From contig JANQNN010000035.1 of assembly GCA_028279545.1 (NCBI GenBank), forward strand, positions 27,425 to 91,424: DNA of 64,000 bases. The letters are read 5' to 3'. The translations under genes were made by a program, and so were the position numbers. This DNA comes from Nitrosopumilaceae archaeon (GTDB lineage Archaea > Thermoproteota > Nitrososphaeria > Nitrososphaerales > Nitrosopumilaceae). Positions 17,403 through 28,559 of the stretch are shown piece after piece (position 1 is the first letter of the stretch; every line of letters begins with the position of its first letter). The notes beneath the pieces are model-generated. The model saw only the letters and a program-made list of their open reading frames with translations. It did not search any database and was not told the origin of the DNA.

Positions 17403-19073
17403 TCAAATCAAGCCCTCCTCCTGTGCAATTTTTGTGATTTTTTCCTTCTTTTTTCCAACAACATGAAGTCCAATCCACTTGTTTACAAGCTCCGAGCCTC
17501 CAAACTTGTGAGCCTGTTCAAGTAAATTCTTTCTTCTCCTTCGAAGTACTTTGTGTCTAAACTCTCTAATTGCTTCTCTTACATTGTGTTGTCCAATAAT
17601 TGCACTTCCCCCAACAAAGGAACGTGCTCCATCTGCATAGCAAGACCCAACGTTTTCAAGGTTTACACCACCATCAGCTTCGATGTATCCCCGAAAATTA
17701 TTCTCCTTTAGGATAGGATCTAGATATCTCATTTTTTCATGAGTCTCAGGAATGTATTTCTGACCAGACTTGCCAGGAACTACAGACATTACAATTAGTT
17801 GGTCAAGTTTTGGTAGGAATTGATAAGACCATGGTGGCAAATCAGTTTCAGGATTTATTGCAAGACCAACACTTACTTGATTTTGTTTTAAGACATCACT
17901 AATCTCTCCAAAGCTTGATTCATCACAAACTTCTGCATGAACTGTAATGATATCACTTCCGGCATCTACATAATCCCGTAAATGTCTCAAAGGCTGTGAA
18001 ATCATTAGATGTGCATCAAATGGAATAAGAGTAAGCGGACGTAGCTCTTTGATTTTATTGTAATCAAAAGTTTTTGCTGGAACAAAATGGCCATCCATTA
18101 CATCAAGATGAATATAATCTGCTCTTCCATTGACACAACGTTTAACTTCATTTTCTAGGTTTGTCATATCTCCTGCAATAATCGAAGGAGCTATCATAAA
18201 TTGTGCATCAAGTTCTAAATTTATCAAAGGTACAATATCTAAATCCGGAGCTTTTCCGTGCCACTGTGGATTATCTTCCATGTGCTCTACTGCATTTCCT
18301 TTGATAGTTCTGCAGATAATAATTGTAGGAACACCTTTTGTTTGATTTGCTTTTTTTATTGCTCCATCAATTTGCTCAATTCTATGACCGTCAATCTCAA
18401 GTACATTCCATCCAAATGATCTCCACTTGTCTCCAGTCTTCCATCTTGATGCATCCTTCCACATCTCTGAGATATCATCACCAATTAGCTCCTCATCAAG
18501 TGGCATAACTTGTTCGGTGTAAGAGTCTTGTTGGATAAAGTTTCTATCTAAAAATACTGTTAGATTATCTAGCTTGTATTTGGCAGCAGTCATTGCAGCC
18601 TCCCAAATCTGACCTTCATCAGACTCTCCATCTCCAATTATGGTGTAAACATGATGACTCTTGTTGTCAATCTTGGCAGCTAAGGCAATACCTATTGAGT
18701 AGGATAATCCAGTTCCTAGCGAGCCTCCACAAAACTCTACACCTGGGCACTTCAAGTCTGGATGTCCTTGGAGTCTGCTTTCAAATTTTCTTAGAGTCTC
18801 TAGTTCTGATTCTGGAAAATAACCTGCAACTGCCATATTAGAAAACAATCCAGGAGAAGCATGTCCCTTTGAGAGAACAAGTCTGTCCCTGTCTTCCCAT
18901 GTGGGGTTTTTGGGATCAAATCTAAGATGTTTGTAAAATAGGCAGCCTAAAATTTCTGCCATAGAAAATGAACCTCCCGGATGGCCAGAGCCTGCCAGAC
19001 TAGTTGATTTTATGACAAGCTTTCTTGCCTGTAAGATGTTCTTCTTTATGTGATAATAATTCAGACCCAACAT
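17403..19073 (-). CDS. fusion protein: transketolase N-terminal (TPP-binding) subunit + ribulose-phosphate 3-epimerase
   Basis: Residues ~1-285 carry GSGHPGGSFSMAEI and GDGESDEGQIWEA (transketolase N). Residues ~295-510 carry MIAPSIIAGD, HLDVMDGHFVP, MSVVPGKSGQ and EADGGV (Rpe). One uninterrupted ORF. Confidence 0.85.
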   Translation of the reverse strand: MLGLNYYHIKKNILQARKLVIKSTSLAGSGHPGGSFSMAEILGCLFYKHLRFDPKNPTWEDRDRLVLSKGHASPGLFSNMAVAGYFPESELETLRKFESRLQGHPDLKCPGVEFCGGSLGTGLSYSIGIALAAKIDNKSHHVYTIIGDGESDEGQIWEAAMTAAKYKLDNLTVFLDRNFIQQDSYTEQVMPLDEELIGDDISEMWKDASRWKTGDKWRSFGWNVLEIDGHRIEQIDGAIKKANQTKGVPTIIICRTIKGNAVEHMEDNPQWHGKAPDLDIVPLINLELDAQFMIAPSIIAGDMTNLENEVKRCVNGRADYIHLDVMDGHFVPAKTFDYNKIKELRPLTLIPFDAHLMISQPLRHLRDYVDAGSDIITVHAEVCDESSFGEISDVLKQNQVSVGLAINPETDLPPWSYQFLPKLDQLIVMSVVPGKSGQKYIPETHEKMRYLDPILKENNFRGYIEADGGVNLENVGSCYADGARSFVGGSAIIGQHNVREAIREFRHKVLRRRRKNLLEQAHKFGGSELVNKWIGLHVVGKKKEKITKIAQEEGLI

Positions 19074-19158
19074 GTACTTGACTTTTGAAATTTAATAAAA
19101 GTCTATTTCTGCAAAGAAAACTTTGAGAAAAAATCTGATTCGCTAAAACTCATTTATT

Positions 19159-20412
19159 TTATGGAACTGGGGCTACTATAATTACAGCGCCGCCGACTTG
19201 GATCAAGACTCCGCTAAAGGATTCTACAGTAAGGTTGGATCCTGCTGGTATTGTCAAGGTAACTCCATTTGGAATTGTTAGAACAGAGGTGTTCTCAACA
19301 ATTACACTTCCAGCTGCAGTTGCATTTCCAGTCATTGTACAACTAGCATCAACTATCCAATCTCCAAAGACTGGTGGAGCACATGTACAAACATCAATTG
19401 GTTGGTCACCAAAGATTGTTCCAGTAACTGAGCCAAAGCAGTCATTTTCAATTGTTCCAAGGTTAGTAAAGGTGCTAGTGTTAGTTATTGGACCATTGTT
19501 GTTTATGGTACCAAGGTTTGTTACAACACCATTGTTGTCAAAGGCTCCCGTATTGTTGAGTGTACCGTTAATAGTTATTGTGCCATTATTTACTAGAGTT
19601 TCATTGCTGTTGTTTGTAAAAGTAACACCGTTGTTAATTACAAGTGTGGTTCCTGCATCAACGGTTAGCGTGTTTCCTGTCTCAATTGTAGTGTCTTGAG
19701 TTACAGTAATTGTTCCAAGACTATCAAGTGAAAAGCTGTTTGTAATGGAAGTTGCTAGTACTGGTGGATTTGCACCATCAAGTGTTCCATTGTTAACATA
19801 ATCACCATTTAGTGTAAATGTACCGTCATTTGTGAAGGTTCCATTATCAGTAATTGTACCATTGTTTGTTACAACATTGTTGTTAAGAATAGTACCATTG
19901 TTTGTTATGGTGTCTGTTGCATTGTTAATTATTGTACCATTGTTTGTTAGAGTTACCCCACCATTGATTACAAGTTCAGTGCCATCCTCAATAGTTAGGG
20001 TATTTCCAGTCTCAATCGTGGTGTCAGAAGCTGCTGTAATTGTTCCAAGGCTAATTATGGAAAAGCTGTTGGTAATACTTGTGGCTAATATTGGTTGATT
20101 ACCAGTAAAGGTATCAGTGTTTGTGTAATCACCATTTAGAATGAAGGTGCCGTTATTTGTGAAAGTACCATTGTTAGTTACAACATTGTTGTTAATGATT
20201 GTACCATTGTTGAGAATGGTATCATCACTGTCATTGATTATAGTACCATTGTTAGTCAAAGTCTTACCACTATCAACTACAAGTGTTGTGCCTGCACCAA
20301 TAGTTAGTGTAACACCTGCATCAATTGTGGTATCCTCAGTAATGGTAATGGTACCTAGACCATCAAGTGGGAAAGAGTTTGTAACTGAAGTAGCCAACTC
20401 TGGTTGGTTACC
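19159..20412 (-). repeat. ~1.25 kb near-identical block (copy 1) shared by the 3' ends of the two giant genes
   Basis: The last 417 codons of A align without indels to the last 417 codons of B at a constant offset of 5154 nt. Only scattered substitutions by eye. Confidence 0.85.
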
Positions 20413-23400
20413 AGTAAGGGTTCCACCTGCAATATCAAAATCTCCATTTAATGTTAAGGTCGCATTGTTTGTAAAGGTGCCATTATTTATCAAAGTTCCA
20501 TTAAGGATTACCGTAGTTACACTGTTGTTAACTATTGTACCATTGTTTGTTAGAGTAACACCTGTGTCAATTTCTAGAGTAGTGCCAGGACCAATAGTTA
20601 ATGTGTTTCCAGTTTCAACTGTGGTGTCTGCGGTTACATTAATTGTAGCAGAACCAGTAATGTTAGCATCATTTGTAATTGATGTTGCCAAGACTGGTGC
20701 ATTTGTTCCATCAAGGGTTCCATTGTTGGTGAAATCTCCATTTATGGTAAAGGTTCCATTGTTGGTAAGAGTAACAATACTGTCGTTAACTACAGCACCA
20801 TTATTGGTAAGAACGTTATTGTTTATCAAAGTAGAACCACCATTAATTGTTAAAGTCCAAGTTGGGTCAACTACTATCGTAGTTCCAGTACCAATAGTCA
20901 AAGTACTACTACTTGAGATTTGAGTATCTGCATCTATTGTAATTGTCCCAGCTCCAGTGATTGTTGCATCATTGGTTATGTTTGTTGATAAGAATGGCTG
21001 ATTGCCTGTAAACGTTCCATTGTTTGTAAAACTACCATTTAATCCAAGACCACCATTATTTTGTATAGTACCATCATTGATTAGTGTCATTGAACTATGA
21101 ACTGTTAGAGTATCAGAAGCATCAATAGTTAATGTAGTTCCAGTGCCAACAGTAACAGTTACTCCATTATTGATATTGGTATTACCCTTTGTGACAACAT
21201 CACCTGCGTTGATTATTTCAGAATCATGGTTTATCGTGGTATCTAGTTCTGGATCATTACCTGTAATAGTACCTGAACCATTATAATTTCCATCTATTGT
21301 AAAAACGCCTAAGGTATTATCAATTGTACCGTTGTTGATAATAGTGCCTCCATCGATAATGATGGTTTCAAGACTTTGGTTTGTAAGTGTAATACCGGCA
21401 TTAATTACAAGTGTGGTTCCTTCCTCTACAGTTAACGTAGCATCAGTAATTGTTGTATTTTCAGATATAGTGACTGTTGCTAAACCAGATAATGTAACAT
21501 CATTTGTAATATCAGTGGCAAGTATTGGTTGGTTGCCGTTAAAGGTGCCATTTTGATTAAATTGGCCGTTTAGGGTGAAGGTTCCATTATTTGTAAAGGT
21601 ACCATTGTTGGTAAGAGTACCGTTAATGATTATTGTATCATTGTTGATAAGAGTAATAGGGCTTTCGTTAACTAGAATTACACCTTCGTCAACGATAAGA
21701 GTGGTTCCTGTGCCTATAGTTAGGGTATTTGGATCTATAATGTTAGTATTTTGTGTAACGTTAATTGTTCCACCATTGGTAATGCTAGTATCATTTGAGA
21801 TAAATTCTGCCAGTGTTAATTGGTTACCTGTAATGGTACCAGTTCCCGAATAATTTCCGTTTAATTCAACGGTACCTGTTGTATTATCAAGTACACCATT
21901 GTTTATCAAAGCGCCTCCATCAATTTCTAGAGTAACAGGACTTGTGTTTGTAAGTGTAATACCAGAATTAATTACAAGTGTAGTGCCATCTGCAATGTTT
22001 AGAGTTACATCGTCAATTAATGTTGCAACTGCAACTGTAATTGTTCCACCATTTTGTATTGTAGAATCATTGTTTACAGTAGTTGCCAAGGCTGGTGCAG
22101 CGCTTCCAGCAAGGGTTCCACCAGAGTTATCAAAGTCTCCATTTATTGTAAAGGTGTCATTGTTTGTTAGAGTACCAGTGTTGGTGAAAGTACCATTGCT
22201 TGTTACAGTACCATCATTGGTAAATGTTCCACTGTTGATTAAAGTAACATCACTGTTGTTAATGATAATACCGTTGTTAGTTAGAGTATCATTATTTGTA
22301 AGAGTAGAGCCGCTCTCAATTGTAAGGGTAAATGTATCATCAACTACAAATGTGGTTCCAGTTTCAATTGTCACAGAGCCACCATCAATGAATGTGTTTA
22401 CTCCAACGTTAATTGTTCCAGCATTTGTAATTGTTGCTGGATTAGTTACTGTAGTTGCAAGGACTGGTGCATTAGCTCCATCAAGGGTGCCACCCTCATT
22501 ATCAAAGTCACCATTTATGGTAAATGTACCATTGTTGGTAATTGTAGTGTCACTATGATTAACTACTGAACCGTTGTTGGTAAGAGTTCCACCACTATCA
22601 ATCATTAGTGTTGCTCCATCATTAACCCTAAAGGTATTGCCGCTGTCAACTATGATTGTAGTGCCATCACCAATAGTTAGTAAATATGGAGACGTAATTG
22701 TAACATCAGAATCTATGTTAATTTGTGGAACACCAATTAGTAGGGCAACATTGTCAATAGTAGAATTAAGAACTGGTTGATTTGGCCCATTCAAAGTACC
22801 ATCGTTCAAAAAGCTTCCATTAATGGTAAAGGTACCGTTATTGGTTAGAGTACCATCATTATCGATTGTACCATTGACTACAAGAGTTGTATCAGCGTTA
22901 TTGATTAGTGTAGCACCACTCTCAATTGTAAGGGTGAATAAAGGATCAACTTCTATTGTAGTGCCAGCCTCTATGGTTAGAGTATTTGGAGAATCAACTT
23001 GAACGCCAGCTCCTACATTAATTGTTCCAGCTTCAGTAATTGCTGCATCATTTGTAATGTTTGCAGGTAATACTGGTGCGTTATCTCCACCAAGAGTACC
23101 ACCAGTGTTATCAAAGTCTCCGTTTATTGTAAAAGTACCATTGTTGGTAAGAGTACCATTGTTATCAACAGTACCATTGTTAGTAAGAGTACCACCGCTA
23201 TCAACTACAAGAGTAGTAAAAGCGTTGTTAACAATTGTTGCGCCATCTTCAACAACTAGTTCAAAACCCGACTTTACATCAACTGATGTTCCAGCTTCAA
23301 TTGTTAAAGTATTTGGAGAGTCAACTTGAGTTAAAGCTCCTACATCTATAGTTCCAGCATCAGTAATTGTTGCATCATTTGTAATGTTTGCAGCTAGTAC

Positions 23401-24222
23401 TGGTTGATTTCCAGTAAAAGGTGAGTTATTGTCAGTAAAATCTCCGTTTATGATAAAAGTACCACCGGTATTGTCAACCGTAGCATTGTTTACGAAAGCT
23501 CCATTATTGGTGAAAGTATCATTATTATCAAAAGTACCACCGTTTGTAAAAGTAGTAGAACTATTGTTTGCTATGTCACCATTGTTTTCAACTTCACCAC
23601 CAGCATTGGTTGTAAGAGAAGCACCATCAGCAATTGTTAGTGTAAAGGTAGAATTAACATCTAAAATGGTGCCAGTCTCAATTGTTAAAGTATTTGGAGA
23701 TTCAACTGTTGTCTCTGCATTGACGTCAACTATTCCGGCGTCAGTTATTGTTACATCATTATCTACTGTAGTGGCCATTTCTGGTTGATTGCCAGCATAA
23801 CCTTCACTTCCAGAATTATCAAAATCTCCATTTAATGAAATAATTCCACCGGTGTTGTCGATATCACCATTGTTGGTAAAAGAACCATCAATGTTAACAG
23901 TACCGTCATTGGTAAGAAATCCACCAGAATTTATTGTAAAGGAGTCAAGGTCATCAATGGTAAAAGTAAAACCATCTGTAATAAGATCCACACCTGATGG
24001 AACGATAACACCATCTTCGGCTCCTGTTGCAAAGCTAGCAGTTAAGGTACAAGTATCTGGATCTGGACCTGCATCAAAGGTACCAATTATTGGTCCATCG
24101 CCGTCACAAGTTGTGGCATCTACAGTAAAGGCAGCACCTGCATGAGCCTCTGGCATCATACTTGGAACTGCTAAAATCATGGAGATCACAAAAATAGGCA
24201 CGAAAAGTAACGAAATTTTCAA
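19159..24222 (-). CDS. giant secreted Thr/Asn/Gly-rich modular repeat protein A (1687 aa, 14 modules)
   Basis: TTG start. Signal-like MKISLLFVPIFVISMILAVPSMMPEAHAG. 14 modules of 85-124 aa, each opening with GNQP-x-LAT-x-ITN or a variant. Unique 83-aa Cys4 C-terminal domain. Uninterrupted 5 kb frame. Confidence 0.85.
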   Translation of the reverse strand: MKISLLFVPIFVISMILAVPSMMPEAHAGAAFTVDATTCDGDGPIIGTFDAGPDPDTCTLTASFATGAEDGVIVPSGVDLITDGFTFTIDDLDSFTINSGGFLTNDGTVNIDGSFTNNGDIDNTGGIISLNGDFDNSGSEGYAGNQPEMATTVDNDVTITDAGIVDVNAETTVESPNTLTIETGTILDVNSTFTLTIADGASLTTNAGGEVENNGDIANNSSTTFTNGGTFDNNDTFTNNGAFVNNATVDNTGGTFIINGDFTDNNSPFTGNQPVLAANITNDATITDAGTIDVGALTQVDSPNTLTIEAGTSVDVKSGFELVVEDGATIVNNAFTTLVVDSGGTLTNNGTVDNNGTLTNNGTFTINGDFDNTGGTLGGDNAPVLPANITNDAAITEAGTINVGAGVQVDSPNTLTIEAGTTIEVDPLFTLTIESGATLINNADTTLVVNGTIDNDGTLTNNGTFTINGSFLNDGTLNGPNQPVLNSTIDNVALLIGVPQINIDSDVTITSPYLLTIGDGTTIIVDSGNTFRVNDGATLMIDSGGTLTNNGSVVNHSDTTITNNGTFTINGDFDNEGGTLDGANAPVLATTVTNPATITNAGTINVGVNTFIDGGSVTIETGTTFVVDDTFTLTIESGSTLTNNDTLTNNGIIINNSDVTLINSGTFTNDGTVTSNGTFTNTGTLTNNDTFTINGDFDNSGGTLAGSAAPALATTVNNDSTIQNGGTITVAVATLIDDVTLNIADGTTLVINSGITLTNTSPVTLEIDGGALINNGVLDNTTGTVELNGNYSGTGTITGNQLTLAEFISNDTSITNGGTINVTQNTNIIDPNTLTIGTGTTLIVDEGVILVNESPITLINNDTIIINGTLTNNGTFTNNGTFTLNGQFNQNGTFNGNQPILATDITNDVTLSGLATVTISENTTITDATLTVEEGTTLVINAGITLTNQSLETIIIDGGTIINNGTIDNTLGVFTIDGNYNGSGTITGNDPELDTTINHDSEIINAGDVVTKGNTNINNGVTVTVGTGTTLTIDASDTLTVHSSMTLINDGTIQNNGGLGLNGSFTNNGTFTGNQPFLSTNITNDATITGAGTITIDADTQISSSSTLTIGTGTTIVVDPTWTLTINGGSTLINNNVLTNNGAVVNDSIVTLTNNGTFTINGDFTNNGTLDGTNAPVLATSITNDANITGSATINVTADTTVETGNTLTIGPGTTLEIDTGVTLTNNGTIVNNSVTTVILNGTLINNGTFTNNATLTLNGDFDIAGGTLTGNQPELATSVTNSFPLDGLGTITITEDTTIDAGVTLTIGAGTTLVVDSGKTLTNNGTIINDSDDTILNNGTIINNNVVTNNGTFTNNGTFILNGDYTNTDTFTGNQPILATSITNSFSIISLGTITAASDTTIETGNTLTIEDGTELVINGGVTLTNNGTIINNATDTITNNGTILNNNVVTNNGTITDNGTFTNDGTFTLNGDYVNNGTLDGANPPVLATSITNSFSLDSLGTITVTQDTTIETGNTLTVDAGTTLVINNGVTFTNNSNETLVNNGTITINGTLNNTGAFDNNGVVTNLGTINNNGPITNTSTFTNLGTIENDCFGSVTGTIFGDQPIDVCTCAPPVFGDWIVDASCTMTGNATAAGSVIVENTSVLTIPNGVTLTIPAGSNLTVESFSGVLIQVGGAVIIVAPVP
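21829..22479 (-). repeat. ~0.65 kb near-identical internal block (copy 1; modules A5-A6)
   Basis: 217 codons from GANAPVLATTVTNPATITNAG to NGNYSGTGTIT are nearly identical to B modules 2-3. The offset is 5148 nt. Confidence 0.8.
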
Positions 24223-24312
24223 TACAATATTTTGAAACAGGATCTTTATTAGCCTTTTTTATGAATAAATCCTTTTAACCTTCTTTTTTCCTGATCTGAA
24301 GATTTTTTCAGA

Positions 24313-25566
24313 TTATGAAACTGGGGCTACTATAATTACTGCACCGCCGACTTGGATCAAAACTCCACTAAGTGAAACTACGGTCAGGTTAGATCCTGCA
24401 GGTATTGTCAAAGTGACACCATTGGGAACTGTTAGGACAGAGTTGTTTAAGACAAGGACATTTCCTGCTGCTGTGGCATTTGCAGACATTGTACAACTTT
24501 CATCAACTACCCAATCTCCAAAGACTGGTGGTGAACATGTACAAATATCGATTGGTTGATCTCCAAAGATTGTTCCAGTAACTGAGCCAAAGCAGTCATT
24601 TTGAATTGTTCCAAGGTTGGTAAAGGTGCTAGTGTTAGTTATTGGACCATTGTTGTTTATGGTACCAAGGTTAGTTACAACACTATTGTTGGTAAATGCT
24701 CCACTATTGTTAACAGTTCCATTGTTTGTTATTGTGCCGTTATTAATTAGAGTCTCACTACTGTTGTTAGTCAAAGTAACACCATTGTTTATTACAAGGG
24801 TGGTTCCTGCATCAACAGTTAGGGTGTTTCCTTCCTCAATTGTAGTATCAGCTGCTACGGTAATTGTTCCAAGACTATCAAGTGAGAAGGTGTTTGTAAT
24901 GGAAGTTGCTAATACTGGTGGATTTGCACCATCAAGTGTTCCATTGTTAACATAATCTCCATTTAGTGTAAAGGTTCCATCATTTGTGAAGGTTCCATTA
25001 TCAGTAATTGTACCATTGTTTGTTACTACATTGTTGTTAAGGATAGTACCATTGTTTGTTATGGTATCTGTTGCATTGTTAATTATGGTACCATTGTTTG
25101 TTAGAGTAACACCGCCATTAATTACAAGTTCAGTGCCATCCTCAATGGTCAAAGTATTTCCAGTCTCAATTGTGGTGTTGGAGGTTGCTGTAATTGTTCC
25201 AAGACTAATTATTGAAAAGCTGTTGGTAATGCTTGTGGCTAATATTGGCTGGTTACCAGTAAAGGTATCAGTGTTTGTGTAATCTCCATTTAGAATGAAG
25301 GTACCGTTGTTTGTGAAAGTACCATTGTTTGTGACAACATTGTTGTTAATGATTGTACCATTGTTGAGGATAGTATCATCGCTGTCATTAATTATAGTGC
25401 CATTGTTTGTTAGAGTTTGGCCACTATCAACTACTAGCGTGGTTCCTGCACCAACGGTAAGGGTAACACCTGCATCAATTGTGGTATCTTCAGTTATTGT
25501 AATTGTGCCTAATCCATCAAGTGGGAAAGAGTTTGTAACTGAAGTTGCCAACTCTGGTTGGTTACC
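24313..25566 (-). repeat. ~1.25 kb near-identical block (copy 2)
   Basis: Counterpart of 19159-20412. Confidence 0.85.
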
Positions 25567-28380
25567 TGTAAAGGTTCCACCTGAGATATCCAAATCTCCG
25601 TTTAGAATTATTTCTCCATTGTTAGTAAGAGTACCATCATTGTCAAGGGTGCCATTTACAATTATAGTGAATGCACTATTGTTAACAATTGTACCATTGT
25701 TGGTAAGAGTAACGCCAGTGTTAATGTCTAATGTAGTGACATTATCGAGTGTAAGAGTGACACCACCATTGATTGTGGTATTTTCTGTGACGTTAATTGT
25801 CCCTGCTGAATTAATGGTAGAATCGTTTGTCAAGGTAGTTGCCAAAGCAGGGGCAGTAGTTCCATCCAGAGTTCCTAAGTTAATGAAATCCCCATTTATT
25901 GTAAAAGTACCATTATTCGTGAAGGTTTCATTGTTATTGAAAGTACCGTTATTGATTATGGTATCGTTATTGATGACAGTTGAGGGACTGTTGTTAGTAA
26001 ATACACCGCCAATATCAATTACTAGTGTGGTGCCAGTGCCAATTGTTAAGGTGTTAGGATTTTGAAGTGTAGTTGGCGCAGTAATTGTAATTGTTCCAGC
26101 ACCAGTAATTGTAGCATCATTATTAATTACAGTAGCTAGTTGTGGTTGATTACCTGTAAATGTGCCGTTATTGGTAAAACTTCCGTTTAATACTATGGCT
26201 CCATCATTGTCAATAGTCCCATTGTTTACAATTGTATCGAAACTGTTATTGTAAAGAGTATCAGAAGCATCAATGTTTAAAGTCGTACCAGTACCAATAG
26301 TCAGAGTAGAACCAGGATTAACAAAAGTATCAGACTGTGTGACAACTGTTCCTGCATTAGTTATTGTAGAGTCATAAGAAATGTTTAATCTTAGTATTGG
26401 ATTATTTCCAGTAATGGTTCCTGTGCCCGAATAATTTCCATTTATTCTAAAAGTACCAGTTGTGTTATCAATTGTACCGTTGTTGATTATAGTACCACCC
26501 ATGATTTCAAGAGTAACAACACTATTGTTTGTAAGTGTAACACCAGCATTGATTACAAGTGTGGTATCTTCACCCACTGTTAAAGTTACTCCATCAATTA
26601 GCGTGTTTTCAGAAACGGTAATTGTGGCAAGATTTGTTATTGAAAAACTGTTAGTAAGAGTAGTTGCAAGTTCTGGTTGGTTGCCAGAAAAGATTCCAAA
26701 TTGGTTAAATTGTCCATTTAATGTCAAAGTGCCATTGTTGGTAAAGGTCTCAAAATTATCAAGAGTACCATTTACAATAATTATATTATTGTTGACCAGG
26801 GTTGCAGTACTATCGTTAGTTAATGTAAAACCTTGGTCAATAATTAGAGTGGTACCAGTACCAATAGTTAGAGTGTTAGGGTCTTGAATGGTAGTGTTAG
26901 CTGAAACATTAATTGTTCCCGCATTAGTAATCGTAGCATCCTTAGTTATTTCTGTAGCTAGTACTGGCTGGTTACCAGTAATGGTTCCAGTTCCTGAATA
27001 ATTTCCGTTTAATTCAACTAAGCCTGTGTTATTATCAAGTATGCCGTTGTTAATCAGTGCACCTCCATCAATTTCTAGAGTAAAAGGAGTTGTGTTGGTA
27101 AGGGTAATACCAGAATTAATTACAAGTGTGGTGCCATCAGCAATGTTTAGAGTTACATCGTCAATCAAAGTGCCAATTGCAACGGTAATTGTTCCACCAT
27201 TTTGTATTGTAGCATCATTATCTACAGTAGTTGCCAAGGCAGGAGCTGCACTTCCAGCAAGGGTTCCACCAGAGTTGTCAAAGTTTCCATTTATTGTAAA
27301 GGTGTCATTGTTTGTTAGAGTACCAGTGTTGGTAAACGTACCATTGTTTGTTACTGTACCATCATTGGTAAAGGTGCCACTGTTGTTGAGAGTAACATCA
27401 CTGTTGTTAATGATAGTACCATTGTTTGTTAGAGTGTCATTATTTGTAAGAGAAGAGCCACTCTCAATTGTAAGGACAAATGTGTCATCGACTACAAGTG
27501 TTGTACCTGTTTCAATGGTTACAGAACCGCCGTCAATGAATGTGTTTACTCCAACGTTAATTGTTCCAGCATTTGTAATTGTTGCTGGATTAGTTACAGT
27601 AGTTGCAAGTACTGGTGCATTTGCTCCTGCTAAAGACCCCCCAGTGTTATCCAAACTACCATTTAGTGTAAAGGTACCATTGTTTGTTATTGTCCCGGGA
27701 CTGTAATTAAATATAGTACCATTGTTTAGCAATTCCGCACCGCTGTCTATTGTAACTGATGCGCCATCATGAATCACAAGACATTCGCCAGCTATCACGT
27801 CCAATGTGGTTCCTGTTGCCAAGGTTACTGTATTTGGAGGATCAATTCCAGTACAATCATCAGAAGCGTTAACAGTTCCCGCATTAGTTATTGTAACATC
27901 ATTTGTTACACTAGATGCAAGTCTAGGAAGGGTTCCGCCATCCAAAGTTCCACCAGTATTATCAAAGTCTCCATTTATTGTAAAAGTACCACTGTTTGTA
28001 AAGGTTCCAGGATTGGTAAAAGCTCCATTGAGTACTAGAGAAACATCACTGTTGTTATCTAAATCCCCATTGTTTGTAAGAAAAGCACCAGAATTAATTG
28101 TTAAAGTATGACCACTTGCAATTGTAAAAGTATCACCACTATCTACGATAAATTCAACACCAGAAGCTACCGTCAAATCTCCAGTAGTTGTAAAGGAAGC
28201 ACCAGTAGTACATGTATCAGGGTCAGGTCCTGCATCCCAAACAGCACTAGTTACCAGGGTTTCACAAGATGTTTCATCAAAGATAGTATCACCTCCTGCA
28301 TATGCATCAGGCAACATAATTGGAAAAAGGGCAAATCCTAGGATCGCAAATAGTCCGACAAAAATTCCCCCGATTTTCAT
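24313..28380 (-). CDS. giant secreted Thr/Asn/Gly-rich modular repeat protein B (1355 aa, 11 modules), paralogue of A
   Basis: ATG start. Signal-like MKIGGIFVGLFAILGFALFPIMLPDAYAG. 11 modules collinear with modules 4-14 of A, and the same C-terminal Cys4 domain. Confidence 0.85.
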   Translation of the reverse strand: MKIGGIFVGLFAILGFALFPIMLPDAYAGGDTIFDETSCETLVTSAVWDAGPDPDTCTTGASFTTTGDLTVASGVEFIVDSGDTFTIASGHTLTINSGAFLTNNGDLDNNSDVSLVLNGAFTNPGTFTNSGTFTINGDFDNTGGTLDGGTLPRLASSVTNDVTITNAGTVNASDDCTGIDPPNTVTLATGTTLDVIAGECLVIHDGASVTIDSGAELLNNGTIFNYSPGTITNNGTFTLNGSLDNTGGSLAGANAPVLATTVTNPATITNAGTINVGVNTFIDGGSVTIETGTTLVVDDTFVLTIESGSSLTNNDTLTNNGTIINNSDVTLNNSGTFTNDGTVTNNGTFTNTGTLTNNDTFTINGNFDNSGGTLAGSAAPALATTVDNDATIQNGGTITVAIGTLIDDVTLNIADGTTLVINSGITLTNTTPFTLEIDGGALINNGILDNNTGLVELNGNYSGTGTITGNQPVLATEITKDATITNAGTINVSANTTIQDPNTLTIGTGTTLIIDQGFTLTNDSTATLVNNNIIIVNGTLDNFETFTNNGTLTLNGQFNQFGIFSGNQPELATTLTNSFSITNLATITVSENTLIDGVTLTVGEDTTLVINAGVTLTNNSVVTLEIMGGTIINNGTIDNTTGTFRINGNYSGTGTITGNNPILRLNISYDSTITNAGTVVTQSDTFVNPGSTLTIGTGTTLNIDASDTLYNNSFDTIVNNGTIDNDGAIVLNGSFTNNGTFTGNQPQLATVINNDATITGAGTITITAPTTLQNPNTLTIGTGTTLVIDIGGVFTNNSPSTVINNDTIINNGTFNNNETFTNNGTFTINGDFINLGTLDGTTAPALATTLTNDSTINSAGTINVTENTTINGGVTLTLDNVTTLDINTGVTLTNNGTIVNNSAFTIIVNGTLDNDGTLTNNGEIILNGDLDISGGTFTGNQPELATSVTNSFPLDGLGTITITEDTTIDAGVTLTVGAGTTLVVDSGQTLTNNGTIINDSDDTILNNGTIINNNVVTNNGTFTNNGTFILNGDYTNTDTFTGNQPILATSITNSFSIISLGTITATSNTTIETGNTLTIEDGTELVINGGVTLTNNGTIINNATDTITNNGTILNNNVVTNNGTITDNGTFTNDGTFTLNGDYVNNGTLDGANPPVLATSITNTFSLDSLGTITVAADTTIEEGNTLTVDAGTTLVINNGVTLTNNSSETLINNGTITNNGTVNNSGAFTNNSVVTNLGTINNNGPITNTSTFTNLGTIQNDCFGSVTGTIFGDQPIDICTCSPPVFGDWVVDESCTMSANATAAGNVLVLNNSVLTVPNGVTLTIPAGSNLTVVSLSGVLIQVGGAVIIVAPVS
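26977..27627 (-). repeat. ~0.65 kb near-identical internal block (copy 2; modules B2-B3)
   Basis: Counterpart of 21829-22479. Confidence 0.8.
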
Positions 28381-28559
28381 AGATAGTCTGATAAAATCTG
28401 ATTTAATAGATTTTTCTTAGAATAAAAAATCAGGACTAATAGGAAAGAAAAATTGTGCCTAATTTTTGGAAAAAAACTACATAATCAAGGGGAAAGCAAC
28501 AAGAAACCTTTGTGATTATTTTCTGTAAGATATTAATCTGATCGGGGGTATTCTATAGT

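Follow-up and report, generated by a model that had tools for sequence, protein, structure and literature searches.

Architecture of genes A and B

We analyzed a window of 64,000 nucleotides (nt), namely positions 27,425 to 91,424 of contig JANQNN010000035.1 from a Nitrosopumilaceae archaeon (assembly GCA_028279545.1). It contains two large neighboring genes, termed A and B, whose sequences form a mosaic of similar and strongly diverged segments. The organism is an ammonia-oxidizing archaeon, with RLI/ABCE1 encoded in the window and archaeal amoA in the genome, and the draft genome comprises 1.92 Mb in 57 contigs with ~33% G+C. Genes A and B are arranged head to tail on the minus strand, separated by 90 nt, inside a contig of 215 kb (lengths of products in amino acids, aa):

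19159-24222, minus strand: gene A, 1687 aa, TTG start; signal peptide, N-terminal domain of ~146 aa (2 Cys), 14 modules of 85-127 aa, C-terminal domain of ~98 aa (4 Cys)
24313-28380, minus strand: gene B, 1355 aa, ATG start; layout as in A, with 11 modules
22777-23784, minus strand: modules A1-A3, without counterpart in B

Both genes are complete, each having a start codon and a signal peptide. The two products contain 20% Thr, 14% Asn, and 12% Gly, while Lys and Arg are almost absent, and they carry 71 (A) and 63 (B) N-x-S/T sequons. A preliminary description of the window, made from the letters and their translations, had noticed three extra N-terminal modules in A, which is borne out by the counts of 14 modules in A and 11 in B (25 in total). 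The N-terminal domains, each of ~150 aa with 2 Cys, are 46% identical. Outside the coding regions, the upstream sequences share a single short weak match of ~45 nt (best local alignment), and on the 3' side similarity ends at the stop codon.

Mosaic alignment of A and B

In a global protein alignment, A and B run without gaps over A 509-1148/B 179-818 and again over A 1151-1687/B 819-1355, leaving one interruption:

20773-20778, minus strand: the sole indel of the 1177-codon alignment, 2 codons (A aa 1149-1150) missing in B, within module A10/B7

The offset between the genes is 5154 nt on the 3' side of this indel and 5148 nt on its 5' side. The preliminary description had reported the last 417 codons as free of indels at a constant offset, and we recovered the same offset of 5154 nt with an aa identity of 93%. 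Sliding windows along the codon alignment revealed two plateaus of 84-97% nt identity flanking a trough of 54-78%, so that divergence is far from uniform along the pair, as had been proposed.

We then located the change points by maximum chi-square segmentation with 500 permutations per split, for which the smallest attainable p value is 0.002. Three change points were obtained, at A aa 582, 801/802, and 1260 (window positions 22479, 21820, and 20445), with p = 0.002 each. They divide the alignment into two similar blocks and two diverged segments, as follows:

22480-22698, minus strand: segment 5' of block 2, A aa 509-581; nt identity 58%, third-position identity 0.44
21820-22479, minus strand: block 2 in A, aa 582-801, modules 5-6; nt identity 89.7%, third-position identity 0.78
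26968-27627, minus strand: block 2 in B, aa 252-471, modules 2-3; offset 5148
20446-21819, minus strand: central cassette in A, aa 802-1259, modules 7-11; nt identity 66.8%, third-position identity 0.50
25600-26967, minus strand: central cassette in B, modules 4-8, the partner of the central cassette in A
19162-20445, minus strand: block 1 in A, aa 1260-1687, comprising modules 12-14 and the C-terminal domain, preceded by the final 14 aa of module 11; nt identity 88.6%, third-position identity 0.75
24316-25599, minus strand: block 1 in B, aa 928-1355; offset 5154

These positions agree within 9-33 nt with the blocks outlined beforehand (19159-20412 and 21829-22479). The five intervening modules measure 97/97, 92/92, 85/85, 100/98, and 98/98 aa in A and B, which matches the earlier lengths when border placement is allowed for. 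Their aa identity of 62-67% falls inside the 60-70% that had been estimated by eye, while the two modules of block 2 are 94% and 90% identical. The description of the blocks as near-identical holds at the protein level; at the DNA level, however, ~11% of sites differ and the longest exact stretch shared by A and B is 65 nt.

A base-by-base reading showed that at each of A aa 582, 801/802, and 1260, identity rises from ~60% to ~95% over the span of a few codons. All three borders sit in the linker that joins successive modules, NGDFDN.GG..G..P.LAT, which is the best-conserved stretch over all 25 modules. The mosaic and the positions of its break points are thus read directly from the alignment.

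Silent-site divergence of blocks and center

The same pattern is present at silent sites. Among four-fold degenerate sites, 26% differ between A and B in block 2 and 29% in block 1, as against 56% in the center, where the saturation level for the base composition here is ~64%. The contrast between the blocks (28%) and the center (56%) is highly significant (Fisher p = 1.3e-9), while block 1 and block 2 are indistinguishable (p = 0.71), and six sub-segments of the blocks are homogeneous in silent divergence (chi-square p = 0.22). After correction for composition, the silent distance is 0.37 (95% interval 0.29-0.47) in the blocks and 1.39 (at least 0.94) in the center. In Nei-Gojobori estimates per module, synonymous divergence (dS) is 0.34-0.62 for the modules of the blocks, whereas central modules have 0.8-2.7, at a nonsynonymous divergence (dN) of 0.25-0.32. 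The two blocks are therefore of like silent-site age, and both are younger than the center.

An alternative explanation holds that no recombination took place and that the whole alignment has one age, with the blocks under stronger constraint or the center mutating faster or under diversifying selection. Selection does vary along the gene, since dN/dS in the blocks ranges from 0.015 to 0.19 and is lowest in modules 12-13 (0.015-0.026), and long antisense open frames overlap the blocks. However, differential constraint alone was rejected, because the two-fold contrast persists at four-fold silent sites and the borders are abrupt; such constraint is present, but on top of an age difference. Against a faster-mutating center, the substitution spectrum is alike in blocks and center and shows no adenine bias, and the drop in the transition/transversion ratio is as saturation predicts. 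Against diversifying selection, central dN/dS stays below about 0.35. The antisense frames fare no better, as their dN/dS lies above that of the sense frame, and 155 of the 215 block differences occupy third positions of the sense frame, which is the frame under selection. Taken together, these data make a history without recombination quite improbable.

The antisense open frames lie on the plus strand and reach up to 260 aa (19235-19699, 20141-20923, 21899-22558, 25295-26065, and 27026-27706). We rejected antisense genes as the source of silent-site conservation, given the higher antisense dN/dS and the presence of stops in one of the pairs. These frames are by-products of the ACN/AAY/GGN codon make-up and should not be annotated as genes.

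Two further processes were considered. Local hypermutation or a diversity-generating retroelement was ruled out by the same spectrum everywhere, the missing adenine bias, and the 1.4-kb length of the diverged region. Recent micro-conversion was likewise rejected, since a longest run of 65 nt is, by a rough estimate, close to the length expected at 11% divergence.

In modules A12 (20095-20403) and A13 (19765-20094), compared with B9 (25249-25557) and B10 (24919-25248), we counted 4 aa changes and 50 silent changes in 213 codons. Despite their low-complexity look, these Thr/Asn modules are under very strong purifying selection and are no free-evolving filler.

Module history and relative timing

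The maximum-likelihood tree of the modules places A7/B4, A9/B6, and A11/B8 as sisters on long branches, and A8/B5 within one clade. By contrast, A10 is placed with A4 (support 94/80) and B7 with A7/B4 (98/94), so that these two are not sister modules and the old part has seen the replacement of at least one module. Since the central modules are conserved in position and length, and three of the five pairs in matching positions have remained sisters, the center is an old version of the same array and not unrelated DNA. Within either gene, module identity does not exceed 67% aa; hence there was no homogenization across modules, and exchange was strictly in register between A and B.

The neighboring genes provide a time scale. 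In RLI, pepA, and the next open reading frame (ORF), 40-59% of four-fold sites differ from the two nearest sister species, and therefore the central split of A and B is about as old as that speciation or older, while the blocks are younger.

Orthologues that could refine this history were sought widely. At E <= 1e-30, none of 40 related genomes gave a match. When five relatives were searched at a lower threshold, the matches in four of them, all sister species, were essentially confined to the C-terminal domain (~75 aa) and spread over many different proteins; the fifth, a genome of the same family, gave additional weak matches to the repeat region. There is no close homologue among 5.8 billion proteins, where the best matches are 31-33% identical, exact-protein look-ups returned no match, and pattern scans of genome and metagenome contigs for A/B orthologues turned up nothing closer than remote bacterial repeat proteins. 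With a profile built from the 25 modules, 1680 proteins were matched, 16 of them at E <= 1e-30; the two top matches were rejected as family members, having only a generic "TLTNNGTI" solenoid repeat in common.

A third paralogue and the integrity of the assembly

The genome holds further family sequence in two pieces:

contig C36, 1-1429, minus strand: N-terminal piece of the third paralogue, 476 aa, with start codon and signal peptide
contig C46, 1-1968, plus strand: C-terminal piece of the third paralogue, 654 aa

The two contig ends do not overlap and are the sole ones holding family sequence, and the pieces may come from one gene or from two. Over the aligned parts, they are ~59-64% identical to A and B. 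Modules A2 and A3 are mutual closest relatives (67% aa), and after each other they best match modules of the third paralogue. The neighbor of the C46 piece has no homologue in three sister species.

Since the genome is a draft of 57 contigs and two contig ends interrupt this third family member, one may ask if the A/B pair itself could be an artefact, the contig being chimeric or two strain variants of a single gene having been placed in tandem. Yet A and B differ in module number, in the N-terminal domain, and on both flanks (apart from the short weak upstream match), no exact shared stretch exceeds 65 nt, the pair is located within a 215-kb contig, and both frames are intact and under purifying selection. 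The lack of long exact stretches, the differing lengths, N-termini, and flanks, and the position in the long contig make a collapse or tandem misjoin unlikely, and we regard an assembly origin of the pattern as most improbable. The earlier warning that the locus is prone to assembly collapse does not apply to A and B, which are too different; the fragile spot of the assembly is the third paralogue, where the break in fact lies (C36 and C46).

Origin of the mosaic

The twofold silent-site contrast, the abrupt borders in the linkers, and the uniform spectrum argue that the mosaic is very likely a product of recombination, either conversion or cassette replacement, as the preliminary description had suggested. 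The exchange is fairly old and of a known kind, and no new mechanism is implied.

For interlocus gene conversion specifically, we propose the following course. A and B would be old tandem paralogues, whose protein identity first fell to about 65%. In one of the genes, two segments would then have been overwritten with the sequence of the other, in register, through break repair with the neighboring paralogue as template; these segments are modules 5-6 (~660 nt) and modules 12-14 together with the C-terminal domain (~1.28 kb). Strand exchange may have occurred at the shared linker motif, where the diverged copies were still locally identical enough. The equal silent-site age of both tracts would best fit one episode, or two close in time, younger than the nearest sister-species split and far younger than the central cassette. 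Strong purifying selection has acted on both copies since, and the outcome is two proteins with the same base, namely the C-terminal domain and three adjacent modules, and with different middle and N-terminal parts.

Alternatively, the stretch from module 5 to the gene end may have been duplicated more recently, at the date of the blocks, and the center and 5' part of one copy later replaced by a collinear diverged homologue, with cross-overs in the linker motifs. The donor might be a further paralogue, or an allele that came in from a different strain. This course gains from the equal silent-site age of the blocks (26% and 29%, p = 0.71), which a single duplication date predicts, and from the presence of at least one further family member in the genome. 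The insert carrying A and B is missing from four sister species, which speaks for a history of import at the locus, and the non-sister relation of A10/B7 indicates that modules do get replaced. On the other hand, no donor for either central cassette was found in the genome, where every other match is at most 77% nt, nor in the 40 related genomes, the 5.8 billion proteins, or the genome and metagenome contig scans. In addition, the 5' part must be replaced as well as the center, so this course requires no fewer events than conversion. We consider it possible, if rather doubtful.

Several points weigh against our preference for conversion. With two full copies and no orthologue, conversion leaves the same observable pattern as a younger duplication followed by replacement of the center, and the direction of transfer is likewise not separable. 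The equal block ages are explained at least as easily by one duplication date as by two conversions. Besides, block 1 ends exactly at the gene end, which fits the end of available homology but also retention bounded by selection. Conversion retains a lead over cassette replacement because no donor was found and both courses need equally many events, while the equal block ages slightly favor a single date. On balance, we infer conversion as the source of the mosaic with confidence a little above even.

Predicted fold and the shared C-terminal domain

We modeled the last 417 aa of B with AlphaFold2, using an alignment of three sequences. The model (predicted local distance difference test, pLDDT, 88; predicted template modeling score, pTM, 0.78) is all-beta, consisting of 4-residue strands and 2-residue turns, and only the last ~20 residues have low confidence. 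Foldseek comparison with the PDB returned only beta-helix proteins (TibA, Ag43, EtpA, HMW1, tapirin, and tailspikes), although none was significant (best E 0.025, TM score at most 0.26). A and B have no Pfam family above the cut-off, the Haemagglutinin repeat reaching 17.5 bits against a cut-off of 21.5, and no NCBIfam match. The TNNGT(I/F) units repeat with a period of six residues, yet the hexapeptide-repeat family PF00132 is absent from the Pfam matches at E <= 0.01. Tandem Repeats Finder detected only imperfect coding repeats, with periods of 18, 24, and 36 nt.

The model predicts that A and B fold as Thr/Asn/Gly-rich beta-solenoid rods. The signal peptides, the sequons, the solenoid model, and the shared C-terminal domain together lead us to regard the proteins as secreted, probably glycosylated rods. 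They are most likely cell-surface adhesin-like proteins, with both location and function deduced from these features.

The C-terminal domain closes both proteins:

19162-19455 (A) and 24316-24609 (B), minus strand: C-terminal domain, with the Cys4 pattern C..C.C..GDW..SC followed by LTIP.G..L.I....GVLIQ.GG
C51:21527-21931, C13:86904-87149, C47:39175-39429, C7:19806-20033, and others: further sites of the domain in the genome

This domain of ~75-98 aa (C.PP..GDW...C...LTIP.G..L.I....GVLI..GG, with a short hydrophobic end) also closes at least nine other signal-peptide proteins of the genome. Its carriers include a subtilase, a reprolysin-like protease, an NHL propeller, and a polysaccharide deacetylase, and many are found in the sister species. 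Neither Pfam nor NCBIfam has a model for it. Because the domain ends many secreted proteins and recurs in sister species, it is probably a generic archaeal surface-anchoring or sorting module.

A and B form an insert in a conserved spacer

In three sister species, a gene fusing an N-terminal transketolase part to ribulose-phosphate 3-epimerase (transketolase-N/Rpe) and a DCC-like gene are divergent neighbors with a spacer of ~75 bp. In our genome, the pair A and B forms a 9.4-kb insert exactly in this spacer, and the insert contains no mobility gene. The flanks, identified by synteny, are as follows:

19074-19158: transketolase-side spacer, the ancestral spacer being kept up to ...CTATTTCTGCAAAG
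28381-28559: DCC-gene-side spacer, the ancestral spacer resuming at TTTTCTGTAAGATATTAATCTGATCG

The insert splits the spacer motif CTATTTCTGTAAAATTTTAATCTGATCG, and TTTCTG(C/T)AA is found on both sides. Judged from these letters, the pair of motifs might be a target duplication, ~9-10 bp long. At the same spot, a fourth species carries an insert that differs from ours (~450 bp, with a small Cys-rich ORF) and is likewise flanked by CTTCTGT. The spacer between the two divergent promoters may therefore be an insertion hot spot.

The flanking gene (17403-19073) is a single ORF in which the N-terminal half of a split transketolase is fused to ribulose-phosphate 3-epimerase; this fusion is conserved in 17 of 19 genomes of the genus, with 81-89% aa identity.

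Significance and comparison with known systems

A and B are real, intact genes under purifying selection, and their locus is a species-specific insert within a conserved backbone. More unusual than the mosaic are two other features, the orphan protein family and the shared C-terminal domain. The common base and differing remainder of the proteins suggest where binding specificity may lie. If the origin by recombination is right, the pair would be one more well-documented case, here in an environmentally important ammonia oxidizer, for the emerging view that large surface proteins of archaea are shaped by segmental recombination between neighboring paralogues, as in bacteria.

A bolder idea is that at least three paralogues form a system of module-cassette exchange, in which linker recombination re-assorts modules of 85-125 aa between genes and strains. 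Were it true, many rod surfaces on a fixed base would exist in the population, for example to evade viruses or grazers; the old tracts of A and B would represent fixed remnants of exchanges that are frequent in the population, and the short repeated motif at the twice-hit spacer would be a preferred landing site for cargo. We offer this as speculation and think it unlikely.

The preliminary description had also likened the pattern to contingency or surface-variation loci, and this part is not supported. Systems of the pilE/pilS, vlsE, or MgPa type draw on silent, promoterless, or truncated donor cassettes and on recent exchange. Here, in contrast, A and B are complete with their own starts and signal peptides, the N-terminal piece of the third paralogue also has a start codon and a signal peptide, the modules within a gene are not homogenized, and the tracts are old (dS 0.34-0.62; corrected four-fold distance 0.37), without an identical tract beyond 65 nt. 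Contingency loci further have slippage-prone promoter or 5' tracts, while at A and B there are only imperfect coding repeats, and the upstream regions contain no long simple-sequence tract and no homopolymer longer than 7. There is no sign of a programmed or ongoing variation system at A and B.

Closer parallels exist in interlocus gene conversion and concerted evolution of prokaryotic paralogues, as surveyed in PMC6053082 and described for the tandem lpl cluster of Staphylococcus aureus (PMC2568036). Like these cases, A and B carry some segments that are far more similar than the rest, with sharp borders and a silent-site signal. They differ in that the tracts are old and only two, with no sign of recurrent homogenization, and in that the breaks follow the module grid of a repeat protein.

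In ammonia-oxidizing archaea, the adhesion proteins Nmar_0455-0459 and NVIE_000940-001020 have ~1000-3000 aa, are induced in biofilms, and are patchy across genomes (PMC12448741). A and B resemble them in type of organism, size class, presumed surface location, and occurrence in some species only, a likeness by functional analogy. A and B have no close homologue in the 40 related genomes.

Large paralogous beta-helical adhesins with conserved and diverged segments also occur in bacteria, such as HMW1/HMW2 of Haemophilus influenzae and FhaB/FhaS of Bordetella, to which babA/babB of Helicobacter pylori may be added. In contrast to the bacterial beta-helix adhesins, A and B belong to an archaeon, which has no outer membrane, and lack a two-partner-secretion or autotransporter domain, with no Pfam match reaching the cut-off. 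Like those pairs, A and B would be two large secreted rods that have a common portion and differing parts through recombination between the copies.

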